This document shows positions 15,737 to 55,329 of a stretch of 64,000 bases of DNA, piece after piece. The stretch lies in the sequence record OZ413489.1; one strand, written 5' to 3'. The notes beneath the pieces are model-generated. The model worked only from the letters and a program-made list of their open reading frames with translations. It was not told the DNA's origin and searched no databases. This DNA is from a phage. Made by a program: the position numbers and the translations under genes. The stretch's first letter is position 1. Every line of letters begins with the position of its first letter.

Positions 15737-15748
15737 TAAACTGTGCAA

Positions 15749-15773
15749 GGGGGCTCCGGCCCCCTTTATTTTA
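15749..15773 (+). terminator. rho-independent terminator
   Basis: GGGGGC-TCCG-GCCCCC then TTTATTTTA. Confidence 0.7.
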
Positions 15774-16738: not shown

Positions 16739-17119
16739 ATGGAGCTTAAAGATTGGTGCATAATCACCTTTGTGTGGGACATTGACGGCTTTCCTGACCA
16801 AACCATGCGTGTTGTTTTAGACAATGAAACGTATGAAATGCGTATGCAATGGAATGAGAGGGATGAGTCCTGGTGGTTATCTCTTGGTCCAGTAGGTGAT
16901 AGCCCTTTAGTAACCAGAAAAGTAACAGCTTGTCAAGATATTTTAGACGGGCTGCATTACAGAGATGATTTACCGAAAGGAAGACTGATGGTGCTGTCGT
17001 TTAAAGACGATCAATATTGGGGTAGAGTTGGAAGATATAACCTTGGGGCGAGATCTGAGCTACAACTTGTATACGGCACCCCGGTTGATCTTTACAAGGA
17101 ACAGCAAGGGTTAGAATAA
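16739..17119 (+). CDS. small tail protein (unknown)
   Basis: 126 aa; AAGGGGA RBS. Confidence 0.35.
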   Translation: MELKDWCIITFVWDIDGFPDQTMRVVLDNETYEMRMQWNERDESWWLSLGPVGDSPLVTRKVTACQDILDGLHYRDDLPKGRLMVLSFKDDQYWGRVGRYNLGARSELQLVYGTPVDLYKEQQGLE

Positions 17120-18123
17120 TGGCAGAGTACAGACGTAGAACATGGCGATTATTGTTTGGTCGTCCTGTAGAACATGGCGGCAAATCAAAAACCAATATCC
17201 CAAAATCTGTTGAAAAGAAAGGGGAGAGTGATTCCGGAGTTTATGAAGTTAGCTCGGACACTGGTGCTGCCAATATAGAGTTTGACATACAAAAGGACAA
17301 TACCAAAGAGCCAAACAAAGGTTATGTGACAGTTTACAACCTGTCTGACGATACAGTTAACTATCTGGACATGCATCAGGCTGATGCCCTTGCAGTTATG
17401 TTTGAAGCTGGCTATGATGATGAGAACCAGTTAATATTCTCCGGAACTGTGGAGTTTGTTGAAGACAGATGGGAAGGTCCGACCAGAAAAACTAAGTTCA
17501 TCTTCGGGGATGGCACTGAGAACATCATTAAGTGCCAAAGCACAAGATCTTATCAGAAAGGCACACCTCTGAACTCTGTGCTTAATGACCTGCTGAAGGA
17601 TATGAACTTGCCAAAAGGTAGGGTTGTTGGTTTTGGAAACCAGACTTTGCAATACTCTATGGCTTTCTCTGGAAACACTGCAGAGAACCTCCGCAGGTTT
17701 GCAAGGCTGACCAACTCCACATTTAGCGTTCAGGATGGGGCTTTGTATTGGACCAAGGTTGGAAAAAGGTTCAAAGACTCTGTGTTTGAAATAAGTGCAG
17801 AGTCTGGGATGCACGGATCTCCTACCCCTAAAAACCCAGAACCTGCTAAAAAACGAAAAGCTAAAGCTGCTGCCAAAGGTGGTTCGACATCTAAAAAGAA
17901 AAAGAAAAACCCGAGAGAGGATGTTGGCCTTACTGTAACCACATGCCTTAACGGAGCTATCCTCCCAGAGTCCACTATTTATCTTAAAAGCAAGCAATAT
18001 ACAGGCTTCTATAAGGTGATTACGGTGCATCATAAGGGCACCATAGAAGGTGGTGATTACACTACAGAGCTTGGCCTTGGGGAAACAGTGGGTGGAGTTG
18101 TTGACAAAACTGAGGAGGTATAA
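17119..18123 (+). CDS. baseplate hub-like protein (by position) with Lys-rich linker
   Basis: 334 aa; precedes spike-like gene; low-complexity PAKKRKAKAAAKGGSTSKKKKKNPRE segment. Confidence 0.35.
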   Translation: MAEYRRRTWRLLFGRPVEHGGKSKTNIPKSVEKKGESDSGVYEVSSDTGAANIEFDIQKDNTKEPNKGYVTVYNLSDDTVNYLDMHQADALAVMFEAGYDDENQLIFSGTVEFVEDRWEGPTRKTKFIFGDGTENIIKCQSTRSYQKGTPLNSVLNDLLKDMNLPKGRVVGFGNQTLQYSMAFSGNTAENLRRFARLTNSTFSVQDGALYWTKVGKRFKDSVFEISAESGMHGSPTPKNPEPAKKRKAKAAAKGGSTSKKKKKNPREDVGLTVTTCLNGAILPESTIYLKSKQYTGFYKVITVHHKGTIEGGDYTTELGLGETVGGVVDKTEEV

Positions 18124-18800
18124 TGGCAATAAATAGGAAAGATGCTGCTGTAAGATCCTTTATAGAAAAAATAATGAGGGACTACCACACCAGTATCAGG
18201 GCCAGAGTTGTCAGTGTAGACTACAGTATCCCTTCTGCAGCCGTGCAGCCAATTGCTGAAACCACGTTTGATGACGGGGATGTAGAGAGATACCCTCTTA
18301 TCTATGACGTTCCAATTCAGGTGATGTCTGCAAACAGCGGAAAGGCAAGGTTAACACTCCCTATTAAGGCTGGAGATGTTGTAGGATTGCAGTTTTCAGA
18401 GAGAAATGAAAACAATAACGACGATCAACAAACTCACGGTCTGTTTCCGGGGTGGGCAATAACCTCTGTTCATTCAGACTCAAACGCTTTACAGATCGAT
18501 CCTGATAACGTAGAGTTATGGAATGATAGGGTTTATTTTAAACTGACACCTTCTGGAGATTTTGAGCTTCAAACACCCGGTGGGACATTACGGTGCGACA
18601 GCAGCGGGGAGTTTTCTTTCACTAACGGGGCTGCCAATTTGCGAGCTGCTGTGGATGGGAATATCAGAATGAATGGTGCTACAATAGACCCATCTGGTAG
18701 AATTATAACTGCTGCTGGCGTGGATTTGGATTCATTCTATGCAGAATATAAAGGTCATACCCACTCTTGCCCTGATGGCGAGACAAGTGGACCACACTAA
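18123..18800 (+). CDS. baseplate spike protein (gpV-like)
   Basis: 225 aa; His- and Cys-containing C-terminal tip motif (HTHSCPDGETSGPH); position after hub-like gene. Confidence 0.4.
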   Translation: MAINRKDAAVRSFIEKIMRDYHTSIRARVVSVDYSIPSAAVQPIAETTFDDGDVERYPLIYDVPIQVMSANSGKARLTLPIKAGDVVGLQFSERNENNNDDQQTHGLFPGWAITSVHSDSNALQIDPDNVELWNDRVYFKLTPSGDFELQTPGGTLRCDSSGEFSFTNGAANLRAAVDGNIRMNGATIDPSGRIITAAGVDLDSFYAEYKGHTHSCPDGETSGPH

Positions 18801-18812
18801 TAGAGGGCTTTA

Positions 18813-19529
18813 ATGGCTACGCTTTATAGTGATATATTGATGGACCCACAGACAGGCGATTTGGCGATAGACAAAGGTCTTGAGTTGATAGATTCAAACC
18901 AGGTAAGTCTGCGCCAGCGCTTGTGGATGAGGTTTAATACGTGGAAGGGGAGCTGGTACTTTGACGAACTGTTTGGCTTCCCTTATATGGACTTTCTCAG
19001 TAAGAAGGTCATGAAGACTGTTCTTGATAACAAGATCATGGAAGTGGCAAGACAAGAGCCGGATGTGCTAAACATCATAAACTTCCAGTCTACCATGGAC
19101 CGAAGATCGAGAACATACCAAGCGTTCTTTGAGGTTGTTACCAAAGAGAACGAGATTGTAAGGCTGGCTTTCGTAGGTCTTGATCAGTTCACCTACCCAC
19201 AACCTGATTCTGGGACAACCTCTCTCTGTGATGATGAGGGTTGGATTAAGTGGGCTAATAAACTGTACTATCTGATCAACTTCAGATTGCCTAGAACAGG
19301 AGATGCCACATGGTGGAACCAGTATGCTGGCCCTGAGATGGAAAATCCGATCCCTGTAGGCTCTCTGTTGACTCAGGATAAAGATCTGCTGATGACTGAG
19401 GCAGAACAAACCATTAACCGCAATACCTGGACGCTTGCTCCAGATGAGCGCGAATACTCTGGTGTTATTGCTACCTCCAATGATGAGGCTATTGCCAACC
19501 AGTCTGGTCGTGCTATTGATGTTAACTAA
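18813..19529 (+). CDS. baseplate wedge protein (W/gp25-like, tentative)
   Basis: 238 aa; GAGGG RBS; N-terminal pattern resembling gp25-like wedge proteins (recollection). Confidence 0.35.
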   Translation: MATLYSDILMDPQTGDLAIDKGLELIDSNQVSLRQRLWMRFNTWKGSWYFDELFGFPYMDFLSKKVMKTVLDNKIMEVARQEPDVLNIINFQSTMDRRSRTYQAFFEVVTKENEIVRLAFVGLDQFTYPQPDSGTTSLCDDEGWIKWANKLYYLINFRLPRTGDATWWNQYAGPEMENPIPVGSLLTQDKDLLMTEAEQTINRNTWTLAPDEREYSGVIATSNDEAIANQSGRAIDVN

Positions 19530-19538
19530 GGAGAAATC

Positions 19539-20207
19539 ATGGCTGTAGCTTATCCTACAATACCAATTCCAGATCTTGAAGATGCAGAAACAGTCCTGAG
19601 TGATGACTTCTTGGTTGTCAACCAGACTGATGGGACAAGAAAGGCTAAGATTGATGATGTTGTCAACGATCTCAGCATTACTAAAATAGTCTATTTCACA
19701 GAGGGTGGTTATCTTAAGAGCAAGAAGGACTTTGCTTATGATCCAGAAACTAAGCGCTACTACACGTGGAACGGGGATTATCCTAAAATAATCCTCCCAG
19801 ACTCCACTGTAGAGGGTGCTGGGGGTGTGTCTGCAAATGCCTGGTCTGTTTTTGGTGAGCTTGCTGCAACTTCTTCTGGCAGAATAGTTGATTACGGATC
19901 TATCGGTGGTCAGCTTGATATGGATCTTGAAGTTGCGGATACCTTTAAGGTTCGACTAACTTCAAATACCACAATCTCTTTTGAAAATCAAACAGAAGGT
20001 CTTGAAGGGGTGGCGAGAACTATAACCGTATGCATTACTCAGACCTCTGGCGGCAACAAAGTCTATTGGCCTGGTAATGTTAAATGGTCCTACGGAAGAG
20101 ATCCTATCCTAACATTTACAGCTGGTGCAACAGACATTTTCAAGTTGGAAACCTACGACAACGGGTTAACTTGGTACGGGGCACTGATTATCGCAGGAGC
20201 TATCTAA
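19539..20207 (+). CDS. tail fibre N-terminal anchor-like protein
   Basis: 222 aa; N-terminus (DDFLVVNQTDGTRKAKIDDVV) is paralogous to the N-terminus of the 1479-aa fibre (DDYLVVQQPDLTRRVKIGDVV). Confidence 0.4.
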   Translation: MAVAYPTIPIPDLEDAETVLSDDFLVVNQTDGTRKAKIDDVVNDLSITKIVYFTEGGYLKSKKDFAYDPETKRYYTWNGDYPKIILPDSTVEGAGGVSANAWSVFGELAATSSGRIVDYGSIGGQLDMDLEVADTFKVRLTSNTTISFENQTEGLEGVARTITVCITQTSGGNKVYWPGNVKWSYGRDPILTFTAGATDIFKLETYDNGLTWYGALIIAGAI

Positions 20208-20208
20208 G

Positions 20209-22806
20209 ATGCGTATTCAACATAACATTGATAACGTATTTCAGATGATTGAGGGGCACAGGAAGTGCCTCGATAACAACACAGGTATTACCAACACCCC
20301 TACACAAAATAAGCTAGTAAACCCTGATGGTCTTATAGCTGCAGGGTGGGCAGGTAATAAGATAAATAATGATTGGGCAATGCATGAGTCCCAAGCTGTG
20401 TTGATTCTGGGATACATTGAAGCATACAGGGCATCGAAAAGCGATTTCTATCTGGGTAGGGCAAAAGATGCTTGGGAAGCTTACAATAGCCATCTTCTGG
20501 GTGCATATGCAGTAGAAAGTAAAATGCAAAGATTGTCCCACTACCCCCTATCCACAGATGGGGTTCCATCACATGGTGGGTTTAAAGATGTGGTGGTGTC
20601 TTTTACCAACGGTAGAGGAAAAATCCCAGCTGGATCTCCGACATGGGGAGAATACCTTGACAAGGCATTCCAAGCGTATAACGGTGTGTTAGGAAGAAAC
20701 ACTGTAGACTCTGATGTTTACGGTGGCACAGATGCTAACCCAGATTGGACAACATCCGGATTAAGTTGGTGGGTTGAGTGGTACATAGCATGGGATGGTA
20801 ACCGCTATTGGGCTAACGGTAGCATAGCCGACAGTGGTCATACGTCTGTAGAGTTCGGCACAATCCAATTACAAGATAAGGGTGTTACAGGCAGCCACAA
20901 GGTGACCTATTGTGTAAGATTACCTCAAGAGCAGGGCGGATCGGTGATACCTGCAGGATCCCCTGTAATTGTAAATCCTATAAACGTGGTTGCAGATAAT
21001 CAGGCCCCAGAGTTGGACGGGGAAGAAATGTGGTGTGACGCTTGTTATCAACTCTACACCTTGACAGGTGAGGAAAAGTATTACACCGCGTTTAAACAGT
21101 CTTACAACAAATTGCTTAATTTCAGTGATATAAACGCCTACGACAAACTGTTTAGGAAGACCACGTTGATTAAGGCACCGTTTACAGATGGTACTTGCCT
21201 TGTTGCAGGAACAGTTCCTGCCATGAGCAGGGACAGTGACGGGTATATCAATTTTAGAATGAACGCACGCCAGCCTTGCGAAATAATTCAAAAAGGGACT
21301 ACATACAAAATAGGCAGAGATGCTGAAATTGTTATGAATTTCGGAGGAGAAGGGGTTCTGTTCCAGCCACATTTCATCCTTAATGATGGCAACAATAACA
21401 AAAAACAGTACAGGATAGGGGTTCCTTTTGGAGGGGCAGAGGTAACAGAAATAGTTGCCAAGGTTACTGATTTCGTAGAGGTAGTTGGTAAAGACGGTAA
21501 TCCGTATCTCTTACCTAAAGAGGAAAACATTGTCGTAAGCGGTGGCGCTAGTGTTAGTATGCAGTATGATACCGACATTTACAACCACTCTGACAACTTC
21601 ACCCGTTGTAATATAGCAAGAGGTAAAGTAACTTTCAATTTTGGGAGAGAGATTTCTTTAAACTCAGTAACTTATCGATCAGATGATGAGATGGTAAGGG
21701 TCAAATTTCTTGACAAAGATAGGTGGTTATGGTATGCTGATCTATATGCCACTAATGGACAATGGATAACAGAAACTCTTACTCTAGGAGATTTCAAACT
21801 AGATCCGACACAACCTCATCACACCGAAGAAGAGATTAAACCTTTCTTTGCTAATCCTAAGGGGCTCACCTCTGTAGATTTCAGCCTAAGCGACAGGCAG
21901 ATAGGTAATGGCTTGTTTGATCTGTACTGCGTAAACACGCTGCCGCAGTTCTATATTGCAGATAGGGATGCTTATCTAATATGGTTTAGCGTATGGATGG
22001 CAAGCAAGACAGAATCAACCGCTAAGGTTGGTGATTGCTATGTCAGAAACTACAAGCAAGGTGCATACAGGCACACACCAGGTGTGTTCCCTGCCGGAAA
22101 GGTGATAGATAAGGAAAACTATCTCTTAGAGGAAAAGCCAAATTGGCCCTACCCTGGCATGCAATACCCAGCAGTATACTGCATGGGTGCAGAAAACATA
22201 GATCGCCATAGATTGTCAAATACAATAGGCTTTCTGTATGACGCTCAAGTCTGGTATAACAATACATTTAAGACAGAGGGTCCAGTTGCCTCACGTTATG
22301 TATGGCAGAGAGGTAATGAAGGGTTGACTGGTTGGTGGGAGATGGTAGATAACTCTAAGCTCCAGTCAAGATCTTTTGTTGCTGCGTGCCGCACAATATA
22401 TGAGCTCAAGAAACATAAAGAACCTGTTGATGAAAGACTGTTCCTGTTCTGCCAGAAATGGGCATGGTTCCTCAACAGATTCCAGTCATCTCATTCAGGA
22501 AATCTACCTACAGACTTTAACACCTCTGGGGGATATTCTTATCAGGACAGAGGAGACAGGATGTGGGTGGTAGGTGAATGGCTTGCAGGCTGCTGCTGGC
22601 TAGGTCTGTGCGGGTATTCAGAGACAATACCTCAAATAGACATTGTTGTAGAAGCCTGTATGAAGCTACTGCAAAAGCACCACTTCATCAATGGGGATAA
22701 TGTTTTAAACGGCTGCTGGGCAGTTTCTGATCCGGTGGGCTATCACTCTGGCGAAATCCTTCGCGGTCTGGGCCTTTATGCTCAATACCGTGGATTGTAC
22801 CTTTAA
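20209..22806 (+). CDS. large tail-associated protein, possible glycan-degrading enzyme
   Basis: 865 aa; Trp/Tyr-rich with enzyme-like composition; sits right after the fibre-anchor-like gene; function inferred only. Confidence 0.3.
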   Translation: MRIQHNIDNVFQMIEGHRKCLDNNTGITNTPTQNKLVNPDGLIAAGWAGNKINNDWAMHESQAVLILGYIEAYRASKSDFYLGRAKDAWEAYNSHLLGAYAVESKMQRLSHYPLSTDGVPSHGGFKDVVVSFTNGRGKIPAGSPTWGEYLDKAFQAYNGVLGRNTVDSDVYGGTDANPDWTTSGLSWWVEWYIAWDGNRYWANGSIADSGHTSVEFGTIQLQDKGVTGSHKVTYCVRLPQEQGGSVIPAGSPVIVNPINVVADNQAPELDGEEMWCDACYQLYTLTGEEKYYTAFKQSYNKLLNFSDINAYDKLFRKTTLIKAPFTDGTCLVAGTVPAMSRDSDGYINFRMNARQPCEIIQKGTTYKIGRDAEIVMNFGGEGVLFQPHFILNDGNNNKKQYRIGVPFGGAEVTEIVAKVTDFVEVVGKDGNPYLLPKEENIVVSGGASVSMQYDTDIYNHSDNFTRCNIARGKVTFNFGREISLNSVTYRSDDEMVRVKFLDKDRWLWYADLYATNGQWITETLTLGDFKLDPTQPHHTEEEIKPFFANPKGLTSVDFSLSDRQIGNGLFDLYCVNTLPQFYIADRDAYLIWFSVWMASKTESTAKVGDCYVRNYKQGAYRHTPGVFPAGKVIDKENYLLEEKPNWPYPGMQYPAVYCMGAENIDRHRLSNTIGFLYDAQVWYNNTFKTEGPVASRYVWQRGNEGLTGWWEMVDNSKLQSRSFVAACRTIYELKKHKEPVDERLFLFCQKWAWFLNRFQSSHSGNLPTDFNTSGGYSYQDRGDRMWVVGEWLAGCCWLGLCGYSETIPQIDIVVEACMKLLQKHHFINGDNVLNGCWAVSDPVGYHSGEILRGLGLYAQYRGLYL

Positions 22807-22810
22807 CATA

Positions 22811-22830
22811 GGGGGCTGTTTGCCCCCTTT
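22811..22830 (+). terminator. weak terminator-like hairpin
   Basis: GGGGGC-TGTT-TGCCCCC followed by only TTT. Confidence 0.3.
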
Positions 22831-22841
22831 CAGGAGAAAGA

Positions 22842-25800
22842 ATGGCTGATATTAAAGTTGTCAGAATTGAATCTCTTCCTGCCACTACCGCAGTGACAGA
22901 GGATGATTACCTGGTTGTTCAACAACCAGACCTGACCCGTCGTGTAAAAATTGGCGATGTTGTCCATGTGGATGGGACTGTTTCTCATGTAATCTCCTTT
23001 AAGGAAGGTGGTAAGTTAAACGGCCCAATGGATTTTGCCTACTTCGAAGAGGAAGACCTCTACCTGCGTTGGAAAGGCGAATTTCCACACACTGTTCCTG
23101 CACTATCTTCACCGTACGCTGATGGTGGGATTACTGACGCTGCATGGATGGTATATACAGATCCGTCCTTAAGGGAGGAGCTGGAATCTACCATTGGCGC
23201 ATCTATGATCATGACAGCCGAAGGGCAGTCTGTCCAGGATGTAATGGATGTTACTGTTCAGACAGCTAACGATGCTAAAGCACTTGCACAGCGTGTAGAT
23301 TTTGGTACGGTGCACACTGTAGGTGATGTTATTCACCTTGATAACTTTGTGGGTCCTGCAGTTATTGAAGAGGGAAGAACTACCAACTACCCTTCTGTAG
23401 CAGCTGGTGAAAAATTTCTGAACGGTGTGGTATCTCGTCGTGATACTACAACTGTTGATGGTATTTTCCGTGGCGCTACCACCGGAGCCATGTACACCAT
23501 TGCAGTAACCAACGGTGTAGCAACAACGAAAAGAATAGCACTTCGTGATGAATTTAAACGCCTAGAGGCAAACAACCCAACAAGAACAGTTATCCGTGCT
23601 GGAGATGATTTAAATACGGCAGGGTACTTGCAGCTTGATGCAACAGGCCGTTGGGGTATGTGGAACCAACAAACAGCTTCGTGGCAACCTCTTGCTATAG
23701 AGCAAGGCGGCACAGGGGCTAGAGATGCCGCTGGAGTCCGTATCAATATCGGTGCTTTCTATAAGCAACGTGCAGCCCTTGAGCCAAATTTCAATATCAA
23801 TAACTTGACTGGTAATCAGGATGGTGTATACTACCAGCCAATGACTGCTTATGCAACTGAGGCAAATGGTTACCCTGCAGGTTCTGGTGCTGGTCACTTG
23901 ATTGTTTGGCAGAACAATGCTAACGGAGGTACAGGTTGTCGTCAGGAATACTATCCATTCTCTAACGTAGATGTTTGGTATTTGAGAACCTATCAGGCCA
24001 ACACAAATCAGTGGACTGCATGGCAGCCGATGGTCAGACCTCGTAACGATGATACCTTTAGATCGCACATCGGTCTCGGGTCTAGAAATACCCCTACCTT
24101 CGGGCACCTTTACCTGTCTCAAAGCACTTCTGAGGTTAAGTTGCCATCAGGTATTCTCCATGGGGATAAATACGGCGCTGACGGTGCCCTTGAGCATGGG
24201 TATAGGATCTACTCTGAGGTAAGAAACGACAATAAGGCTTGGCTGACAATCCACCTGCACAAAGGTGCAAAAGGATCTGAAACTCATAAATATTTAGGTT
24301 TCCGCGAAGACGGCGTATTAGACTGCCCTAAATATATGCAGGTTGGGGATCTTACTGGTCAGCTGACAAACTGGGGACTTGGAGAATGGATTCGTAGTTC
24401 AGGAGCAGAAAGAGGCTTCTGGGGGTCCAAGAAAGCCGCCAAGATGGTTATCTGGGATGGTGGGATGGACGAATCCGGTAACGGCACTCTGGAATGGGGT
24501 GTTTATAACAACCGGAAGGCCAAGTGGGAACCTCTACCTCAAGCCGCAGGTGGCACTGGGGCTACAACTTTAGCAGATGCTCAGAATCTGTTCAAAGTTC
24601 CTGTAGCGGCAGGCGTAAAAGACTTCTTAATACTGCCAAGAACTGCAGGAATGGAAGATGGGAAATACTACCCAATCATCGTTAGAACAGATCCGTATTA
24701 CGCCCCTTCGACAGGTACAGATATTACCATAGTCACCAGGTCTTCATCTGGAAATGACCCTATGAACTGTGCCACCCTGCAGTGTCACTATAGAACTGGC
24801 GGCTGGACGGACAGGGGAGACTCTTTCTACGGGGTAGTAAATTTCTACCAGAATGAAAAAGCACTTCTTGGGATGATTGCTCCAACAAGGGGTAAACAAG
24901 AGTATGTTGCTTTCTATGTGGAGGCTCGTGCTTTCCCTGTCAGCATATACGCAAGTAGAAATGTTGTCGAAGTGTTTACCAGAGAGCAAGATTACCAGGT
25001 TGGGACTGTAACAGACAATCAGAATGGGGTTAAGTTCGTTGCACCTCTTCAGTCAGCAGATTTGAATCTTGCTATTCTTGGAGATAACAACACCAATACC
25101 AGACCTATTGTCGACTTCAAAGGTACTTCAGGGTTCTACACTGGGGGCGGCACACAGTGGCACTATATAGGCACTGCTGAACGCTATGCTGTGATGAGCA
25201 AAATGAATATGCCAAAAGTCGAGCTATGGGCAGACGGTCTTGACTATTTGTGCTACGGCAGTCCTAGAAAGGCGTTATTCTCTAATGCAGGATTCCAGTG
25301 TGCATCCGATGGGACAGAGGATCTGACTAACGGTACGTTTACCTCTAAATGCGGTAATGGTGCTGGTCTCAAAGGTCAGGCAGAGTTCAGATCTACTCCA
25401 GAGGCTGGTCAAGTTATTGTTCGTGATGTTGTAGGTTCTGCTCACAGATTCTACAACTTCAACAAAGATGGCACTTTCTCAGCTCCTGGTGGTTTTGTAT
25501 GCCACACAGGTGCAGACTGGAACAACCAGTTCGGGAATAACAACCCTTCTAAAATAATGGCTGGTAACGTCAACGGACCTGAAGGTTCCATGGTTGTAGC
25601 AGGGTTGTCGGTTGGTTTTTCTGGAAACTACGCTTTCCAGATGGCAGGTCGTTTAGACCAGCTGTATACTCGTTCCATAGAGCAGGGAAACCACAGAGCG
25701 TGGAACAAAGTTATTCAGCACCGTGGTCAAGGGTTGGGAACTAATGACCTTAACGACTACAAGGCAGATCGTGAAGGGATTTACCATCAAGAGGCAAATG

Positions 25801-27281
25801 CCAACGCCACAGCGGAAAGAAATTACCCACCAGGACAGCAGATGGCTGGTACGCTGATCGTTCTTAGAAACTCCGCTAACGAAGGAACAGGTTGTATCCA
25901 GATATATAAAATGTATCTTGGTGGAACATGGGAAAGGTATTACAATAACCTTGGCAGCGGAATGGCTTGGAGTCCTTGGAAGAGAACAAGCTTCCCAGAA
26001 AACACAACTGCTCCAGTTATGCCTGACTTGTGGTTGCCTTTAACCTCTAACCTAAAACCTGCATTGGGTGAAGGTGAGATGGTCTTCTCCAGACCTTCCA
26101 CAGCAACCTATTTCACTAAGCGGGGTGTTATGGCTGTTGCACAAGCAAACCAACCACGTTTTGAAAGAGATGGGTTGCTTATCGAGGGGCAAAGGACAAA
26201 CCTCATGCTCAACAGTGAGGACCCAAGCAAGTGGGGTGCACAGCAAGCGATTACTGTCGGTAGCACTGTAACAAATACTAACGGCACAAAAGGTGCAAGA
26301 TTTACAGTAAACACCGCATCCGGTGTAGAAACAACAGCGTTAAACCTTGCCACTGTTCCAGCCACTAGGGGTGCCGATGTGACAGGTGCTGAGAAATTCT
26401 GTACTGGGTCTATTATTGCAAGGGGAGGTAAAGCGAACCAGAGATTACGTGTAAGATTCGACATGTATGACGGATCCACCACAGTATTCCAAGGTGACGC
26501 TTATGTTAACCTGTCAACACTTGAAGTTAAAACAACAGGGGATGCAGCTGGGAGAATTAAAGTAAAAGCTGAGAGATGGCAAACAGCCGGACCTGCTTGG
26601 GTAAGGATTGCCGCTACGTTTGAGGCAGCGGCCTCTGACAAGAATATCGGTTGCCAGTTCCAGATTGCCCCGCCGGAGAGTTCTCAACATGCCGTAGGGG
26701 ATTGGGTTGACGTTGCAATACCTCAGTTTGAGTTGGGATCTTGTGAGTCCTCGTTTATCCCTACAGGGTCTTCACCTGTAACCAGGGCGGCAGATCTTTG
26801 TAAATTCCCAATGACGGATAACCTAGCGCCCAGACCATTCACTATCGCCGCTACGGTTGATGCCAACTGGAGAGGCTGGGGCAAAGCTCCTAACGCAGCC
26901 CCTAGGGTTATTGATACAGAGGGTCATCAATCCGGTGCTTTATTTATCATGGGGTTTGGCTCTGCAACAAATATTGCGGAGGACGGTTATCCATACTGTG
27001 ATATTGGAGGGTCAAACAGACGTGTTTACGAGATGGCTAAAGCCCGTAAATTGAAAATTGGGTTCAGGATAAAAGGGGACGGTAAAACATGCTCTTTTGC
27101 TAACGGATTGGTAAGTACGGAAACACAGTCTTCTTGGGAGTTCCTGGCAGGAGGCGCTTTCCTCCGCATTGGTGGTCAAACGGCGACAGGTGAAAGACAC
27201 CTATTTGGTCATATTAAGGACATAAGAGTTTGGAACTCTGCGTTGACAGATACTCAACTCATGATGGAGAGTGTTGAATAA
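22842..27281 (+). CDS. long tail fibre protein
   Basis: 1479 aa; fibre anchor-like N-terminus; two GGTGA motifs; duplicated about 60-aa module; C-terminal lectin/LamG-like segment (recollection). Confidence 0.5.
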   Translation: MADIKVVRIESLPATTAVTEDDYLVVQQPDLTRRVKIGDVVHVDGTVSHVISFKEGGKLNGPMDFAYFEEEDLYLRWKGEFPHTVPALSSPYADGGITDAAWMVYTDPSLREELESTIGASMIMTAEGQSVQDVMDVTVQTANDAKALAQRVDFGTVHTVGDVIHLDNFVGPAVIEEGRTTNYPSVAAGEKFLNGVVSRRDTTTVDGIFRGATTGAMYTIAVTNGVATTKRIALRDEFKRLEANNPTRTVIRAGDDLNTAGYLQLDATGRWGMWNQQTASWQPLAIEQGGTGARDAAGVRINIGAFYKQRAALEPNFNINNLTGNQDGVYYQPMTAYATEANGYPAGSGAGHLIVWQNNANGGTGCRQEYYPFSNVDVWYLRTYQANTNQWTAWQPMVRPRNDDTFRSHIGLGSRNTPTFGHLYLSQSTSEVKLPSGILHGDKYGADGALEHGYRIYSEVRNDNKAWLTIHLHKGAKGSETHKYLGFREDGVLDCPKYMQVGDLTGQLTNWGLGEWIRSSGAERGFWGSKKAAKMVIWDGGMDESGNGTLEWGVYNNRKAKWEPLPQAAGGTGATTLADAQNLFKVPVAAGVKDFLILPRTAGMEDGKYYPIIVRTDPYYAPSTGTDITIVTRSSSGNDPMNCATLQCHYRTGGWTDRGDSFYGVVNFYQNEKALLGMIAPTRGKQEYVAFYVEARAFPVSIYASRNVVEVFTREQDYQVGTVTDNQNGVKFVAPLQSADLNLAILGDNNTNTRPIVDFKGTSGFYTGGGTQWHYIGTAERYAVMSKMNMPKVELWADGLDYLCYGSPRKALFSNAGFQCASDGTEDLTNGTFTSKCGNGAGLKGQAEFRSTPEAGQVIVRDVVGSAHRFYNFNKDGTFSAPGGFVCHTGADWNNQFGNNNPSKIMAGNVNGPEGSMVVAGLSVGFSGNYAFQMAGRLDQLYTRSIEQGNHRAWNKVIQHRGQGLGTNDLNDYKADREGIYHQEANANATAERNYPPGQQMAGTLIVLRNSANEGTGCIQIYKMYLGGTWERYYNNLGSGMAWSPWKRTSFPENTTAPVMPDLWLPLTSNLKPALGEGEMVFSRPSTATYFTKRGVMAVAQANQPRFERDGLLIEGQRTNLMLNSEDPSKWGAQQAITVGSTVTNTNGTKGARFTVNTASGVETTALNLATVPATRGADVTGAEKFCTGSIIARGGKANQRLRVRFDMYDGSTTVFQGDAYVNLSTLEVKTTGDAAGRIKVKAERWQTAGPAWVRIAATFEAAASDKNIGCQFQIAPPESSQHAVGDWVDVAIPQFELGSCESSFIPTGSSPVTRAADLCKFPMTDNLAPRPFTIAATVDANWRGWGKAPNAAPRVIDTEGHQSGALFIMGFGSATNIAEDGYPYCDIGGSNRRVYEMAKARKLKIGFRIKGDGKTCSFANGLVSTETQSSWEFLAGGAFLRIGGQTATGERHLFGHIKDIRVWNSALTDTQLMMESVE

Positions 27282-27613
27282 TGAATATTTTTACCCTTGG
27301 ATTCACTGACAGGGAGGACTTTAACGGTTTCATGGATGAAATCGGCTTTTATGAGAATGAGGTGTTGCAAAACACCCTTCTTGTAGAGGTTGTCGGGTTC
27401 ATTTACACAGAGACTGGAGACACTTATGAGGCCGAAGATGAGTTTGGCAACATGGTTGTCTACCCAGTTTGCGAGAAAAGTGAATTGTTTTATGTTAACG
27501 TTCTGGCTCTAAACGGGGATGCAGAAAACATCATCTCTAAAAGCGGAAAAGTTGTAGATCCGATAAGGTTGAACATGTTCGACCCATCAGTATCCACCTT
27601 GGAAGCACTTTAA
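27281..27613 (+). CDS. small acidic protein, candidate fibre chaperone
   Basis: 110 aa; start overlaps fibre stop (TAATG). Confidence 0.3.
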   Translation: MNIFTLGFTDREDFNGFMDEIGFYENEVLQNTLLVEVVGFIYTETGDTYEAEDEFGNMVVYPVCEKSELFYVNVLALNGDAENIISKSGKVVDPIRLNMFDPSVSTLEAL

Positions 27614-27620
27614 AGTATTG

Positions 27621-27648
27621 CCCTCGCTTCGGCGGGGGTTTTTTGTTT
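27621..27648 (+). terminator. rho-independent terminator
   Basis: CCCTCGC-TTCG-GCGGGGG then TTTTTTGTTTG. Confidence 0.7.
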
Positions 27649-27651
27649 GTA

Positions 27652-27680
27652 TTGCGTATTAACTTAAAATCTGGTAAAAT
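27652..27680 (+). promoter_or_regulatory. sigma70-like promoter, TTGCGT-17-TGgTAAAAT
   Basis: -35 27652-27657, -10 27675-27680 preceded by TGG. Confidence 0.45.
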
Positions 27681-27711
27681 AACTATCATAATTGTTTAAC
27701 CTGGAGGCATA

Positions 27712-28302
27712 ATGTTTTTATGGGAAAGGCCTAGATACCTTCCAGATATTAGATTAGAGTTGCTGGCAGATATTGTCACGTTTAAAAGTCCGTTTACAGG
27801 TAAAACGCAAAAAGTAACCTATGCCACGCCTAACTGGAAAGGCACTTTGACGGTCTCCAATATCAGCGAGTCACAGTTACTAGAGCTTAAGAGCTTTGTT
27901 GATCAGGTGTATAAAGATGGGAACATCTTTCTTATTAAAACTTACGGTCACTCGGTAACAGCTAACGAGCCAATCGCCCTTGGGCCTACTGGTAACGACG
28001 ATTTTTTGAAGACTGTTGGGTGGGAGCCAAACAGAGACATAGCCAGAGCCGGGGATAAAATATCTGTCAATGATGAATTGAAAGTGGTAACAGCTCCAGT
28101 GCGTAGCGATGGTGTTGGGTCTGCTGTTATAGGCATATCTCCAAGACTTAGAAAACCTATTGCCGCAGGGGACACCATGAAGATAATAACTCAATCTCCG
28201 AAGGGTAGGTTTCATATCAGAGATATTTATAAAATTAAGCAAAAAGTCGATGCTATGCAAAAAGGTGATAATATAGTTATCAACTTCTTTGAGGATTTCT
28301 AA
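27712..28302 (+). CDS. distal tail protein (lambda M / GTA g12-like, tentative)
   Basis: 196 aa; GGAGG RBS; first of four genes ending in a J-like host specificity gene. Confidence 0.3.
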   Translation: MFLWERPRYLPDIRLELLADIVTFKSPFTGKTQKVTYATPNWKGTLTVSNISESQLLELKSFVDQVYKDGNIFLIKTYGHSVTANEPIALGPTGNDDFLKTVGWEPNRDIARAGDKISVNDELKVVTAPVRSDGVGSAVIGISPRLRKPIAAGDTMKIITQSPKGRFHIRDIYKIKQKVDAMQKGDNIVINFFEDF

Positions 28303-28303
28303 G

Positions 28304-28855
28304 ATGATCAGAGCGCCATTAGATAATTTATTTCTTGAAAAGCTGGAGCTTGATGGTGTTGAGATCTTAATTGCTGCAAAGCTGGAGCTACCGACAGGAA
28401 CTGTCAGGGTGTGCTCAGGCACTGGTGTTGTAGTAATTGAGGGGCAACATTTTATAGGGATAGGTGGATCAGCAACATTAACCGCTGTGTCTGAGAAAGA
28501 TGCCACCAACTTCGGATCTGTGGTAGCGACATTGAACGGGTTTGATCCTAAGTATGTGGGTGATCTGCTAAAGACTGAGTATTCTGGTTGTCGTGCCACG
28601 TTGTACATTACCGCTATGGAGAATGGTCTGCCTGTTACAACTAATGGCTTGTTTGACGGCCTTATAACAGATATGGCTATTCAGACAGGTGAGAATAGCG
28701 CTTTGTCCATATCCATCTCTTCCATCTTTAACAGTTGGTTAAGAGGTTTTCCTTATCGGTACACGGAGGAAAGCCACAGCTCAAGAAACGATAATGACAG
28801 ATTTTTTAAATATGTGGATCAGGTGGCGAGCCGCCCGATCATTTGGGAGGTTTAA
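28304..28855 (+). CDS. distal tail protein (lambda L / GTA g13-like, tentative)
   Basis: Track ORF 28289-28855; ATG 28304 with GAGGA RBS (183 aa); assignment by order only. Confidence 0.3.
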   Translation: MIRAPLDNLFLEKLELDGVEILIAAKLELPTGTVRVCSGTGVVVIEGQHFIGIGGSATLTAVSEKDATNFGSVVATLNGFDPKYVGDLLKTEYSGCRATLYITAMENGLPVTTNGLFDGLITDMAIQTGENSALSISISSIFNSWLRGFPYRYTEESHSSRNDNDRFFKYVDQVASRPIIWEV

Positions 28856-29280
28856 TGAGCACACACCCTCGTTTAGTGGATTGGCAAGAAAGATTGTGGA
28901 AAGTGTTTGACGAAGAGGCCACCATACCTTTTGAATGGGGATTCCACGATTGTTGCACCTTTGCAGCTAAGTGTGTTGATGCCCAATACGGAACAGATTT
29001 TCTTTCTAACTTCGAAGGAACGTATAAAACAGAGTTGGAAAGCAAAAGATGGTGCATGCTTCGTTTCAAAACCACACACCTGCCTACTATTTTTGATCTC
29101 TTTATGACTCGGCTGGATACTCCTAAACAGGTTCAGCGTGGAGATATTGTCATTTTCGAAGGTCTGAACGGGCTCACCGCTGGTGTGTTCTGGAACAACC
29201 AGATTTGGGCGAAAGGTGATAAAGGGGTCTTTATGTTCGACATGAAAGATTCTATCGTTGTTGATGTCTGGAGGTATTAA
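28855..29280 (+). CDS. NlpC/P60-like tail peptidase (tentative)
   Basis: Track ORF 28843-29280; ATG 28855 (141 aa); WGFHDCCTF and GDIVIFEG resemble phage NlpC/P60 Cys-His peptidases located before J-like genes. Confidence 0.35.
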   Translation: MSTHPRLVDWQERLWKVFDEEATIPFEWGFHDCCTFAAKCVDAQYGTDFLSNFEGTYKTELESKRWCMLRFKTTHLPTIFDLFMTRLDTPKQVQRGDIVIFEGLNGLTAGVFWNNQIWAKGDKGVFMFDMKDSIVVDVWRY

Positions 29281-32200
29281 TGCCAATTGCAATGATTGAT
29301 AACATCGTTGCTTCTGCAAGATCTTCAAGTTATGACTGGAACGCATCCAAGGCAGCTCTGGCTGACAGCCTGAACACTGTGACCACCAGAACTTTGGATA
29401 AGATTTTTGAGGGCAACAAATCTTACAGAAGTCAGCAAGATAGACAAAAGCTTCTCAGATCTTCTGCTGCACCTTGCTCTGTAGTGTATGGGAAGACACG
29501 CACATCTGGATTGCTTGCGTTTTTGGAGCAGGATAGCGACAGAACCCTCCATTGTGCTATTGTTCTTGCCAATCACCCTCTGGAAGGTATAGAAGATATA
29601 CTCATCGACGGTAATCCTATTTCCTCGTATGGGGATTTGGTATCGTGGGAGCTACATAACGACAGAAAAACATCGGATCCTTTCATGGGTACACACTGCC
29701 CATCGTGGTCACCAGACATGATAGGTAGAGGGATCAGTTGGCTACGTGCCAGCTTCAGGTTTGACCCTAACAAGTTCCCTTTTGGGTTGCCAAACGTTAC
29801 ACTCGTCAAGGTTGGTAAAAAATGCTATGATCCCCGTATCAGTAAAGAGGTGTATACCAATAACGCGGCCTTGGTGATCCTAGACTATTTAAGAACGTAC
29901 CTTAAATGTCCTGACGAAACCATCAACTGGGAGTCCTTCAAGGAGGCTGCCAACATATGCGACGAGGCGGTAAAAAACGCGGACGGAACCAGTGAGCGCC
30001 GTTACACCATTAACGGTGAGTTCGACATGGATGAGGCTCCAGCAAGTATTATGGCAGAAATGCTGAAAGCTTGTGGTGCAGATCTCAGCTATGTAGCTGG
30101 TAAGTATGGACTGCTGGTAGGTGCATACTATGGCCCGGCAACAATGACACTAAGTGAGGATTGTGTCTGCGGTGAGGTTAAGATCTATCCTGAAGCCTCA
30201 TTTGACAAAAGATCTAACACAATAACTGGCAGATTCACTAGTCCGACCAAAGGGTATTCTGAAACAGATTTTCCATCAGTGTTTGTCCCAGAGTGGATAG
30301 AGAAGGATGGAGAAAGAAAGATAATCGATATAGACTATCGCTTTGTTACCAGCCCTTATCAAGCTCAGCGTGTTTCTGCAATATTCTTAAGACGTGCCAG
30401 AGCTGGCAGGATTATTGAAGTCACCTGCAATATGCGAGGTTTTAAATTTAAGCCTGGTCGTTACGTCACAATGGATCTTCCAAGTATTGGTATAGTGGGC
30501 CAAGAAATGAGGGTTCTTGAATGGGAGTTCACCAAAAAGGGCGGTGTCAAGGTAAAACTTCGTCAAGATGCTAAAGAGTGGAATGATGCCACAGGGCAAC
30601 TTCCGGATTCCGGCGATGTAGATATTCCGATATCCCCGTCCGGTGTAGCTCAGCCGCAAAACTTCAGATACTCCGTTCTCCAAGCTGGGGAAGTAACTCA
30701 CGGTGTTTTGGCCTGGGACAACGTTGGGACTTACGCTCAAAATATTGTGCAGGTAAGAAAGAACGGAGAGATTGTTTGGACAGCACAGACAGTTGAGCAG
30801 TTTGTCAGAGTAGAAGGTTTGACAAAAGGGTCATACACAGCAACCGTGGTTGCAACATCTTATAAAGGTGGTGTATCTCCAGAAGCGTATTGTGAGTTTA
30901 ACATTCAGGCACCTGAAGCTCCGGTTTCTGTAGAGGTTAAGCAAGGATACTTTGCTATCACCTTGATTCCGCATAGTAGGGATTTAGCAAGTGTTAGCAC
31001 CCAGTATGACTTTTGGACATCCGGTATGACAAGGTTGCCCGACACCAGTGATGCAACCGTTACTTCAAACGCCACCCGTATGGGTGTTGGTTCAACTTGG
31101 ACATCTGAAGGTCTGCAGAACGATAAGGTTTATTATTGGTATATTCGAACCACAAACGCTTTTGGTAGTTCTCAGTTTGTAGAATGCGCTGCACGCTGCT
31201 ACACCTCTATTGAGGATTTGATGCCTCAGATAGATGCTGAATTTAAAAAGACAGAAACTTATAAAGAGTTGATGAGCACTTTAGATTCATCTATTGAAGA
31301 GGTTGAAAATAGGGTCACAGAACTTAACAGGTACATGGATGGTAGGGTAGATGAGGCATTCCAGCAACTTGGAGACAGAATAGGTGCGGTAGTTACAGAG
31401 ACAACTCAGAAGTTTGAGGATGTCAATGGCAATATCACAGCGCTGGATAGGAAACTTGTTGCTGCACAGAACAAGTTCACCAACGATCTGAACACTGAAA
31501 GTGGAAGATTGGCATCCCTGATTGAGACAACCAATAAAGCAACTACTGATCTTCTGAACAAAAAGACAGAGGCTTTAGATGAGAAATTGGTTGCCGCCAA
31601 AGGTGAGCTGGTAGAGCAGATAGAGGGAGTTGAGAGCGGGTATTTGGCCGGAGATAAAACTCTGGATGGTAAGATCAATACTCAGAGAACAGAACTTGAC
31701 GCAAGCATCTTGAGCACTAACCAGGCCACTGTGGATCTTTTGAACAGGACATCTGAAACTCTGGATCAAAAGATTAGTCAGACAAACGCGACGGTATCTA
31801 AAAACTATACCACCCTTGACGGCAAGATAACTACCGCAAAAACTGACCTCAACACCTTGATTGCCAATACCAACAAGGCCACCACTGACTTGTTGAATCA
31901 GAAAACATCTGCACTGTCAGAGCAGATAACTTCTGCACGTGGGGAGATTTCTACCAACAAGCAAGCGATTGATGCTTTGGATGGAAAACTGACCTCCACA
32001 AAAACAGCGCTGGATGCTACAATTTCCGATACCAATAAAGCCACTGTGGACCTTATCAACGGCACAGCGTCAGCTATTCGTCAAGAACTTGCTGTTGCTA
32101 AGCAGGAGATCATTGATGATGTTGGGGATGTGTCTGAGATCAGGGCTGCAGTAGCTACAACATCTAAGGCTGTAACCGACTTAGAGGGTAAAGTAAATGC

Positions 32201-33119
32201 TCAATGGGGCACAAAAATACAGGTAGACTCCGCAGGGAATAAATATGTTGCAGGTATTCAGTTGGGGATGGAAGGGTCTGGAGGCCAAGTTCAATCCTAC
32301 TTCATGGTTAGCGCAAACAATTTTGCGGTATACAACCCTGGCAATGGAACAGCAACCCTTGCTTTCGCAATCAAGAACAACCAAGCGTTCTTGAAAGACG
32401 CTTTTATAGAGAATGGCACGATCTCCTCTGCCAAGATTGCACAAGAAATTTCGTCAAACAACTACGATGGCAACGGGTACCATAAATACGGTTGGTATAT
32501 TAACAAGAACGGGCACGCCCAATTTATGGATGTGTGGGTGAAAGGCAACATCAACGCCAGTTCTGGTAACTTCACAGGGGCAGTTAACGCCACTAGTGGT
32601 ACCTTCCGTGGGGATGTTTATGCCAATAATGGTAGCTTTAGAGGCACCATAGATGCAACCGGAGGTACCTTCCGTGGTCGTGTAGAAGCTTCTGTTATCC
32701 GCGCTAACCAGTTCGAAGGTGCAATTGTTGCACACAGGACTTACGGAGATTGTGCTCCAGTATATAACTCCCAGCAAAGGGTTTGCCGTTGGAGGTGGAG
32801 ATACGTAGATAACGTTTCAGGTCAGGGTAAGAACGTAACATTCTTCTTTAAACTGAATGGTACTCTTGCCAGCTCCCAACTGAATGCATGGATAGCTGGT
32901 CATCAGATCCTTGCTGGCAAGAAGTATTTTAACGACAACAACGGCATGTGCGCGGTAGGGATAACAGGTCTTGGTGAACAAACTATAGACATTGTTATCG
33001 AGATTTACACACCGTGGTCAACGTCGAGCGTGACAGGTGTCACAATTTCCTGTCCTACTGTGATAGTAAGTCGTTCAAACTCTAGCTTCCAGGGACCTTG
33101 GAACGAGTCTCACGACTAA
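29280..33119 (+). CDS. host specificity / central tail fibre protein (lambda J-like)
   Basis: 1279 aa; N-terminal region resembling J-type tail proteins, FN3-like segment, four tandem coiled-coil repeats, C-terminal Gly-rich beta-helix-like repeats. Confidence 0.5.
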   Translation: MPIAMIDNIVASARSSSYDWNASKAALADSLNTVTTRTLDKIFEGNKSYRSQQDRQKLLRSSAAPCSVVYGKTRTSGLLAFLEQDSDRTLHCAIVLANHPLEGIEDILIDGNPISSYGDLVSWELHNDRKTSDPFMGTHCPSWSPDMIGRGISWLRASFRFDPNKFPFGLPNVTLVKVGKKCYDPRISKEVYTNNAALVILDYLRTYLKCPDETINWESFKEAANICDEAVKNADGTSERRYTINGEFDMDEAPASIMAEMLKACGADLSYVAGKYGLLVGAYYGPATMTLSEDCVCGEVKIYPEASFDKRSNTITGRFTSPTKGYSETDFPSVFVPEWIEKDGERKIIDIDYRFVTSPYQAQRVSAIFLRRARAGRIIEVTCNMRGFKFKPGRYVTMDLPSIGIVGQEMRVLEWEFTKKGGVKVKLRQDAKEWNDATGQLPDSGDVDIPISPSGVAQPQNFRYSVLQAGEVTHGVLAWDNVGTYAQNIVQVRKNGEIVWTAQTVEQFVRVEGLTKGSYTATVVATSYKGGVSPEAYCEFNIQAPEAPVSVEVKQGYFAITLIPHSRDLASVSTQYDFWTSGMTRLPDTSDATVTSNATRMGVGSTWTSEGLQNDKVYYWYIRTTNAFGSSQFVECAARCYTSIEDLMPQIDAEFKKTETYKELMSTLDSSIEEVENRVTELNRYMDGRVDEAFQQLGDRIGAVVTETTQKFEDVNGNITALDRKLVAAQNKFTNDLNTESGRLASLIETTNKATTDLLNKKTEALDEKLVAAKGELVEQIEGVESGYLAGDKTLDGKINTQRTELDASILSTNQATVDLLNRTSETLDQKISQTNATVSKNYTTLDGKITTAKTDLNTLIANTNKATTDLLNQKTSALSEQITSARGEISTNKQAIDALDGKLTSTKTALDATISDTNKATVDLINGTASAIRQELAVAKQEIIDDVGDVSEIRAAVATTSKAVTDLEGKVNAQWGTKIQVDSAGNKYVAGIQLGMEGSGGQVQSYFMVSANNFAVYNPGNGTATLAFAIKNNQAFLKDAFIENGTISSAKIAQEISSNNYDGNGYHKYGWYINKNGHAQFMDVWVKGNINASSGNFTGAVNATSGTFRGDVYANNGSFRGTIDATGGTFRGRVEASVIRANQFEGAIVAHRTYGDCAPVYNSQQRVCRWRWRYVDNVSGQGKNVTFFFKLNGTLASSQLNAWIAGHQILAGKKYFNDNNGMCAVGITGLGEQTIDIVIEIYTPWSTSSVTGVTISCPTVIVSRSNSSFQGPWNESHD
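31520..32100 (+). repeat. tandem 150-190-nt repeat units inside J-like gene
   Basis: Four diverged copies starting near 31530, 31716, 31869 and 32021 (ACCAATAAAGC... / TNKATxDLLN at protein level). Confidence 0.5.
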
Positions 33120-55319: not shown

Positions 55320-55329
55320 CAAAAACGTG

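Follow-up and report, generated by a model that had tools for sequence, protein, structure and literature searches.

The position of a large, aromatic-rich protein directly behind a tailspike-type anchor raises the question of whether a phage tail carries an enzyme at this place, how such an enzyme would be held on the virion and which surface structure it would act on. The locus lies in a stretch of 64,000 nucleotides of phage DNA from sequence record OZ413489.1 (the window), which comes from a Vequintavirus, an rV5-like Escherichia coli myophage, and is 98.4% identical to phage APECc02 over its 17000-29000 region. The gene in question occupies positions 20209-22806 on the plus strand, runs from ATG to TAA and encodes the 865-aa ortholog of rV5 gp42, a virion tail protein with a six-hairpin enzyme-like core. 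An earlier note, made from the sequence alone, had put this protein forward as a tail-associated polysaccharide depolymerase. The analysis supports an enzyme-like tail protein with a fold of the glycoside-hydrolase type; the depolymerase role is unproven. We favor, at about an even chance, the reading that gp42 is a non-fibrous (alpha/alpha)6 tail protein seated on the gp43 adapter that binds, and probably cleaves or modifies, a conserved glycan of the cell surface. Both the protein and the hypothesis are already present in the literature and databases, where a glycosidase or depolymerase is the standard guess at the level of annotation. Added here are the confirmation of the fold, the cassette of adapter plus enzyme, the remodeling of gp42 in the rV5 clade and the separation of gp42 from gp34.

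The 865-aa frame is a real gene and not a chance open reading frame (ORF), because PHROG 2871 ('tail protein') matches aa 1-863 (E=0, 1185 bits) and a tblastn search with the target gives matches in 525 phage records, 467 of which cover at least 80% of the query. ORFs on the minus strand within the gene do not exceed 150 aa and are annotated in no related phage record. Its sequence matches that of rV5 gp42 (ORF 42, 'tail protein') at 99.8% identity, and the slur16 and WalterGehring copies are 100% identical to it; identity is 99.7-99.8% among four Vequintavirus genomes and at least 96.9% among the rV5-like records listed. The family is small, since a set of 1.8 billion proteins yields 92 representatives of it at the 50% identity level, and appears to be largely confined to phages. 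The richness in Trp and Tyr that had first drawn attention is genuine: W accounts for 3.1% and Y for 5.5% of the residues, and their sum of 8.7% is the highest among the 23 large ORFs of the window (2.5-8.4% in the others). The motifs quoted at that time are also present, GWWEMVDN at aa 708, WAWFLNRF at aa 751 and MWVVGEWLAGCCWLGL at aa 785.

Several labels have been given to this protein before. BASEL annotates the ortholog of the target 'with glycosidase domains', and phi92 gp141 is listed as 'Glycosidase' in a review, after Schwarzer et al. 2012 (PMC5380687). LL12 gp42 aligns with phi92 gp141 over nearly the full length (PMC7229145), and the copy in the phi92-like phage muut is 35% identical to the target. 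Compared with the rV5 gp42/phi92 gp141 group, the protein of the window is the same protein (99.7-100% to the Vequintavirus copies), it stands in the same place after a gp43-type adapter and nothing in its sequence differs; the earlier labels are predictions at the annotation level. Mass spectrometry of rV5 virions detected both gp42 and gp43 (PMC3606486). The label 'lateral tail fiber', which gp42 has also received, is a misnomer as judged from the predicted structure, since the gp42 model has no fibrous part.

The fold was assessed with an alignment of 42 gp42 family members and an AlphaFold2 model of the target (mean predicted local distance difference test score 89.6, predicted template-modeling score 0.84). 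The helices of the model fall into three blocks (aa 2-96, 269-305, and 654-864), separated by two beta-rich stretches (about aa 101-261 and 323-639), and together they build up a full barrel, with six helices inside and six outside, as is required of the six-hairpin (alpha/alpha)6 superfamily. The first barrel segment (aa 1-100; 20209-20508, plus strand) contains helices 2-23, 59-76, and 79-96, and its conserved residues E60 and Q62 lie where an inner helix begins. It is followed by the first beta-rich insertion (aa 101-261; 20509-20991, plus strand; model strands 101-254), which is placed after an outer barrel helix and before the inner helix that comes next. The second barrel segment (aa 262-322; 20992-21174, plus strand) consists of helices 269-286 and 289-305, with D270 and E272 at a helix N-terminus, and the second beta-rich insertion (aa 323-639; 21175-22125, plus strand; model strands 329-613) probably comprises two beta-sandwich sub-domains. 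The third barrel segment (aa 640-865; 22126-22803, plus strand) has helices 663-687, 714-735, 742-761, 782-800, 809-824, and 844-864 and holds all three motifs of the earlier note as well as the conserved D678, Q680, W699, R701, R721, and E849. Within the second insertion, aa 482-580 form a module that is common to other tail proteins (PHROG 23426 match), and the Foldseek matches of this insertion, which have low TM-scores, are to chains of the lectin, jelly-roll, and CBM-like types; neither insertion, searched in isolation, has a match in Pfam. The chain begins directly with a barrel helix and the model contains no coiled coil or fiber. In the model gp42 is thus a globular, enzyme-like protein, in agreement with the earlier suggestion of an enzyme rather than a fibrous protein. 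It lacks the beta-helix or beta-propeller body and the N-terminal particle-binding domain of its own that define a classical trimeric tailspike, and no solved tailspike is among the Foldseek matches of the model in the PDB. Classical depolymerase tailspikes are borne on the virion and have a presumed glycan target like gp42, but their right-handed beta-helix or beta-propeller is a different fold. Alpha/alpha toroids make up about 1% of the predicted folds of phage depolymerases (PMC11326577; PMC12491483).

Assignment to a single enzyme family failed at every level; the earlier note, too, had recognized no specific family. The target sequence alone has no match in Pfam, in NCBIfam or among PDB sequences, and the whole-chain Foldseek search of the model reaches TM-scores of 0.1-0.2 only, because the barrel is discontinuous. 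Family profiles, both full-length and restricted to the barrel, match chains of GH76 and of cellobiose 2-epimerase, the similarity spanning one or two helical hairpins (E 2.5e-4 to 5e-3), and a Pfam scan of 42 and then 20 relatives gives scattered sub-threshold matches to GH127, GH76, GH47, and C5-epimerase families. The profile searches weakly agree on the superfamily, into which all of these weak matches fall. The structure prediction and profile searches proposed earlier have thus led to a superfamily fold of the glycoside-hydrolase type and to no single family within it. For GH76, the target has no match to Pfam PF03663 and one or two relatives remain below the gathering score at E 0.003-0.014. 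In the HMMER alignment of the family profile with the GH76 chains 9r4k and 9r4p, D270 falls on the leading Asp of the catalytic 'DD' motif ('..ADATDDTGWW..' in 9r4k against '..GNAxDAExWF..' in the gp42 family); in place of the second Asp of the adjacent pair the target has Gly and the family consensus has Ala, and therefore the GH76 machinery is not conserved as such. Membership in GH8, GH88, GH105 or AGE is likewise not indicated, with no Pfam or NCBIfam match and a likeness of the fold only, at 7-13% identity. Among the six-hairpin enzymes compared (GH76 alpha-1,6-mannanases, GH8, the GH105/GH88 unsaturated glycuronyl hydrolases and AGE/cellobiose 2-epimerase) identities all lie in this range and no family is clearly ahead; unlike these enzymes, gp42 has a barrel that is broken by two large beta insertions. 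The tailspike VP4 of the archaeal fusellovirus SSV19 (PDB 7xdi chain F) shares 7% identity with gp42, and no sequence homology between them is detectable. Unlike gp42, VP4 is part of the sevenfold tail of a spindle virus, and its authors report that five residues of the GH76 catalytic site are conserved, whereas in gp42 only the first Asp of the pair aligns.

How a protein without an anchor of its own may be attached to the virion is suggested by the gene next to it. The target starts one nucleotide past the stop codon of a 222-aa ORF with a Tail_spike_N domain (19539-20207, plus strand; stop TAA, one base, ATG), which bears out the observation that it directly follows an anchor domain. This ORF is the ortholog of rV5 gp43 and is 100% identical in rV5, JeffSchatz, and MaxBurger. 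Its N-terminal anchor domain (aa ~41-112; 19659-19874, plus strand) is of the tailspike N-terminal type (Pfam PF18668 Tail_spike_N, E 2e-10), and in the PDB its sequence matches the N-terminal parts of tailspikes, among them CBA120 tailspikes 3 and 4. The remaining domain of about 100 aa at the C-terminus (aa 121-222; 19899-20204, plus strand; motif Q..G.NKV.WP.NVKW...P.LS...G..D......D.G.TW.G) has no match in Pfam or the PDB and is co-inherited with gp42-like genes. Nine lineages were sampled, namely this window, the phi92-like muut, the jumbo phages PBECO4 and SPN3US, Kolesnikvirus phiEa21-4, the T7-like podovirus ISAO8, Rosemountvirus UPF_BP2, Vibrio phage SD25, and the lambda-like Klebsiella phage KLB29. 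In each of them, the ORF directly upstream of the gp42 homolog ends in a gp43-type C-terminal domain (phmmer 40-87 bits) and the N-termini differ; the next ORF further upstream has no match to this domain in the four lineages checked. The domain is thus joined to N-termini of various kinds in phages of the myo-, sipho-, podo-, and jumbo types, and in one record the adapter is annotated 'Phi92_gp140'.

The linkage extends to the database as a whole. A tblastn search with the adapter C-terminal domain alone finds matches in 525 phage records, the same number as for gp42, and the breakdown by taxon is nearly the same for domain and gp42 (240 and 243 for Escherichia, 101 and 101 for Salmonella, 33 and 33 for Erwinia). 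Wherever a record is listed for both queries, its two matches lie next to each other, for example at 18638-18943 and 18948-21542 in nomine or at 139522-139734 and 139995-142487 in Vibrio K382. Judged from these sequence comparisons, gp42 and gp43 apparently form an obligate two-gene cassette, and we infer that the C-terminal domain of the adapter is the docking site for gp42. A check for Rosetta-stone fusions showed that the family members with N-terminal extensions of about 280 aa (P0024, P0036) have no similarity to gp43. In branched tailspike systems, too, an enzymatic unit is held non-covalently by another tail protein, an idea that gp42 and gp43 would share. The systems of G7C (gp66/gp63.1) and CBA120 (TSP1-4) use the same Tail_spike_N (TSP1/Gp66) anchor domain that is found in gp43 and gp41. 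Their enzymatic units, however, are trimeric beta-helix or SGNH tailspikes with N-terminal attachment domains of their own, whereas gp42 has none and is paired with a 222-aa adapter whose C-terminal domain is distinct and unannotated.

A candidate active site is suggested by the conservation within the family. The strongly conserved polar residues are E60, Q62, D270, E272, D502, D678, Q680, W699, R701, R721, and E849; judged by the secondary structure of the model, most of them are located at the N-termini of inner helices or in the long connections from outer to inner helices, the acidic residues E60, D270/E272, D678, and E849 being at inner-helix N-termini. In six-hairpin enzymes the long-loop face of the barrel is the active site, and in the model it is this face from which both beta insertions leave the barrel. 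The following chain of events can be proposed from these findings. The tailspike-type N-terminal domain of gp43 would plug into the baseplate, and its C-terminal domain of about 100 aa would dock gp42, which has a six-hairpin (alpha/alpha)6 core of the glycoside-hydrolase/epimerase type and would thereby be carried on the baseplate. At the mouth of the barrel, with its polar core of E60/Q62, D270/E272, D678/Q680, W699, and R721, gp42 would most likely bind and probably cleave or modify a conserved surface glycan. Together with gp44 and the variable fiber gp41, gp43 and gp42 would constitute one co-transcribed host-recognition module, which the action of gp42 on the glycan would help to engage the cell.

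The contribution of gp42 to infection can be read from a published transposon study of Bas54, the HIDEN-SEQ preprint (10.1101/2025.11.20.689424), in which bas54_0026 is the gp42 ortholog (99.7% identical to the target). In the reference library, 94 of the 189 TA sites of bas54_0026 carried insertions and the gene was put in the class 'Intermediate', and the orthologs of gp43 (7 of 47 sites) and gp34 were classed as 'Essential'; the authors consider bas54_0026 dispensable for infection of K-12 and for virion formation (10.1101/2025.11.20.689424). In liquid competition, mean insertion counts went from 0 on K-12 to 92 on the clinical isolate for bas54_0024, from 0 to 17.8 for bas54_0025, from 3.1 to 52.1 for bas54_0026 (log2 fold change +3.7) and from 0.2 to 16.6 for bas54_0027; those of bas54_0028, 0029, 0030, and 0031 dropped from 85, 53, 38, and 86 to about 0 (10.1101/2025.11.20.689424). 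These tail-fiber figures are not attributable to one particular clinical isolate: the rows for bas54_0020-0032 are identical in sheets S6 and S7, and in Extended Data Table 8 the sheet 'K-12 vs CFE303' has a command line naming sample '311'. In our reading of these counts, gp44-gp41 are one module that is important on K-12 and gp40-gp37 are an alternative module that is needed on the isolate. K-12 lacks O-antigen (PMC11990801), and therefore a role as serotype-specific O-antigen depolymerase does not explain the phenotype on this strain. Conservation has to be considered as well, since gp42 is 99.7-99.8% identical in four Vequintavirus genomes while gp41 falls to 66-68% and gp37 to 84.5%. The near-invariance among rV5-like phages and the fitness cost on K-12, which has neither capsule nor O-antigen, speak for a target that is conserved, or for a structural role, rather than for a depolymerase specific to a serotype. 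The near-invariance is also in line with the interpretation in BASEL, in which conserved tail proteins that resemble glycan enzymes are directed at glycans that are themselves conserved.

Several points weigh against the preferred reading. The target reaches no curated family threshold in Pfam, NCBIfam or among PDB sequences, and the second catalytic Asp of GH76 is missing from it and from the family consensus. The conserved residues are placed by secondary structure, which makes their clustering at the barrel mouth a prediction, and the docking on gp43 is read from gene linkage only. The phenotype of insertions in bas54_0026 could be partly polar on the co-transcribed gp41, and in the literature no activity, substrate or halo was found reported for any member of the gp42 family. 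The weightiest point comes from the rV5 clade itself, which is represented in the alignment by the target and its two closest relatives P0002 and P0003 and was compared with the other 39 aligned members and, pairwise, with eight other lineages (one of them phi92-like). About 13 positions that are kept in eight of eight other lineages are replaced in the rV5 clade. The changes at near-universal positions are T58M, W100Y, N103E, R249A, N250G, W274M, E360I, Y622H, W643K, Y651M, D703N, W715N, and Y718L, by which the clade has lost two of the eight family-conserved acidic residues (E360I, D703N) and seven conserved aromatics; E60, Q62, D270, D678, Q680, W699, and R721 are retained. Such replacements would be compatible with a sugar-binding cleft that has been retargeted or with catalysis that has been lost, and they are the main reason why we rate activity no higher than about one half.

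A loss of catalysis would make gp42 a non-catalytic receptor-binding protein, in which the barrel and its beta-sandwich insertions serve as a lectin-like module for a conserved glycan after the ancestral activity was lost in the rV5 clade, a scenario that we consider rather unlikely. It gains from the fact that the rV5 clade alone has replaced E360, D703, R249, and N250 together with the seven aromatics, that P0003 also lacks E272, and that near-invariance within the genus fits a fixed ligand; the authors of the LL12 study, moreover, saw no recognizable enzymatic domains in the tail proteins of that phage (PMC7229145). On the other hand, the six-hairpin-type polar core is strictly kept, including D502 and E849 besides the seven retained residues, and the simultaneous loss of many subsite residues looks like a change of substrate as well.

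The structural role that near-invariance and the K-12 phenotype would also allow is distinctly improbable in our view. On this view gp42 would serve mainly as a globular connector or branching node through which gp41 or other fibers are held on gp43, with its fold as a scaffold and its conserved residues as protein interfaces. Insertions in the orthologs of gp44, gp43, gp42, and gp41 indeed give one common phenotype, the partner domain of the adapter is itself conserved, and RBPseg cryo-electron microscopy of Bas49 and Bas54, with the baseplate maps EMD-51868 and EMD-51869, shows a fiber head joined to further density that is fitted by no fiber model (PMC12143355). Yet gp41 has its own Tail_spike_N anchor and therefore need not hang on gp42, and no gp41-like fiber gene follows the cassette in ISAO8, the Rosemountvirus phage or the sampled jumbo phages. 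In ISAO8 the gp42 homolog is a neighbor of the single gene annotated as a tail fiber in this podovirus. The invariant Glu, Asp, Gln, Trp, and Arg at the inner-helix N-termini are typical of ligand sites. Furthermore, gp42 is remodeled in the rV5 clade and the C-terminal domain of the adapter is not comparably so, and therefore the changes in gp42 are unlikely to lie at the adapter interface. A carbohydrate-modifying enzyme other than a hydrolase (an AGE-like epimerase or isomerase, or a lyase), which would alter a receptor glycan without depolymerization, is very improbable, since no AGE family threshold is reached, the conserved polar positions of the family include no His (the catalytic His pair of AGE enzymes was not specifically sought), AGE-type enzymes act on free cytoplasmic sugars and we know of no precedent for such chemistry on a virion.

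Within the reading of gp42 as a glycan-directed tail protein on the gp43 adapter, it has to be kept apart from another conserved tail protein of these phages. The BASEL papers tie the dependence on NGR glycan to a tail protein that shares a 'poly-GlcNAc deacetylase' domain with N4 gp64, and the S5C legend locates it near position 8,000 in the alignment of the loci, a position that corresponds to gp42 and not to gp34. A BLASTP comparison of gp42 as a possible N4 gp64 homolog or PF23845 member gives no significant match (best E 0.73). The true homolog of N4 gp64 is the 690-aa ortholog of rV5 gp34 (35413-37485, plus strand; BLASTP 2e-29), which belongs to Pfam PF23845 TIM-barrel_NCTSP (E 4e-80) and also has NCTSP_N and Calx-beta domains. 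N4 gp64 and rV5 gp34 are conserved glycan-enzyme-like tail proteins like gp42, yet they are unrelated to it.

The neighboring genes place gp42 in a long transcription unit. Upstream of the adapter lies the ortholog of rV5 gp44 (18813-19529, plus strand), a baseplate protein of the same operon and module with matches to PHROG 4233 and 120 'baseplate wedge', and downstream of gp42 follows the ortholog of rV5 gp41 (22842-27281, plus strand), a variable lateral tail fiber of 1479 aa with its own Tail_spike_N anchor. In the HIDEN-SEQ data the Bas54 ortholog of gp44, bas54_0024, co-varies with bas54_0025-0027, and bas54_0027, the counterpart of gp41, co-varies with bas54_0026. The upstream boundary of the unit is a strong terminator-like hairpin after the tape-measure gene (15747-15766, plus strand), which was found by the terminator scan and is annotated as a Rho-independent terminator in rV5. 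A second strong hairpin from the same scan (27620-27639, plus strand), after gp41 and a small ORF, forms the downstream boundary and coincides with the switch of the HIDEN-SEQ phenotype between bas54_0027 and bas54_0028. The unit between these hairpins runs from the baseplate hub genes through gp44, gp43, gp42, and gp41 and is separate from the gp40-gp37 module. Between gp42 and gp41, a GC-rich hairpin with a stem of six bp (GGGGGC-TGTTT-GCCCCC; 22811-22827, plus strand) can be read from the sequence 5 nt past the gp42 stop; after it come TTT, a ribosome-binding site (AGGAGA) and the start of gp41. With only three T it is not called by the terminator scan; by its sequence it may be a weak attenuator or an RNA-stabilizing element between the two genes.

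The fibers themselves differ between related phages. The gp41 allele of the window, with a C-terminal GTA_spike_fiber/Laminin_G-like region, shares 97.4% identity with that of JeffSchatz and 66-68% with the allele of 1272 aa found in rV5 and MaxBurger. The opposite pattern is found for gp37 (29280-33119, plus strand), which is 99-100% identical to rV5 and MaxBurger and 84.5% identical to JeffSchatz, and therefore the two variable fibers have been reassorted independently. A further ORF (42680-48316, plus strand) encodes a tail fiber protein of 1878 aa with a Big_2 Ig-like domain. By coordinate mapping it would correspond to rV5 gp27, the third and moderately variable lateral fiber of BASEL, and it is probably the counterpart of bas54_0041, which is non-essential on K-12. 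Between about 48000 and 56000 both GC and AT skew turn negative and the large ORFs, such as those at 52785-54266 and 54279-55322, are found on the minus strand, which marks a block of opposite transcription after the tail module. About 18-23 unannotated GenBank records of the MG0656xx series (C12, C14, A147, A135, and others) are named 'Campylobacter phage' and are 96.7-99.5% identical to rV5-like coliphages in the part of the genome covered by 17000-29000 and 20209-22806; their host labels look doubtful, and they may be contaminating coliphages.

Phages of the rV5-like and phi92-like groups are candidates for therapy and biocontrol with a broad host range, and most of their many tail proteins are unassigned; the BASEL authors describe it as unclear which genes build which fiber. 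As the evidence stands, the finding for gp42 confirms the existing annotation. A wider extension of it, which we regard as possible and somewhat doubtful, is that the cassette is self-contained and horizontally mobile and has been grafted onto the tails of myo-, sipho-, podo-, and jumbo phages by swaps of the adapter N-terminus. In this scheme a new glycoside-hydrolase-like family would begin with gp42 and would act on a conserved glycan of enterobacteria (such as NGR glycan, enterobacterial common antigen or the lipopolysaccharide core); the rV5 clade would be a retargeted or silenced offshoot of this family. The rV5 version of gp42 may lack the ancestral activity. The pair of gp42 and its adapter offers a testable unit for the engineering of host range, in which the N-terminus of the adapter is swapped and its C-terminal domain is kept together with the enzyme. 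If the activity is true, gp42 would be a rare virion glycanase without a beta-helix and would probably represent a new CAZy family.

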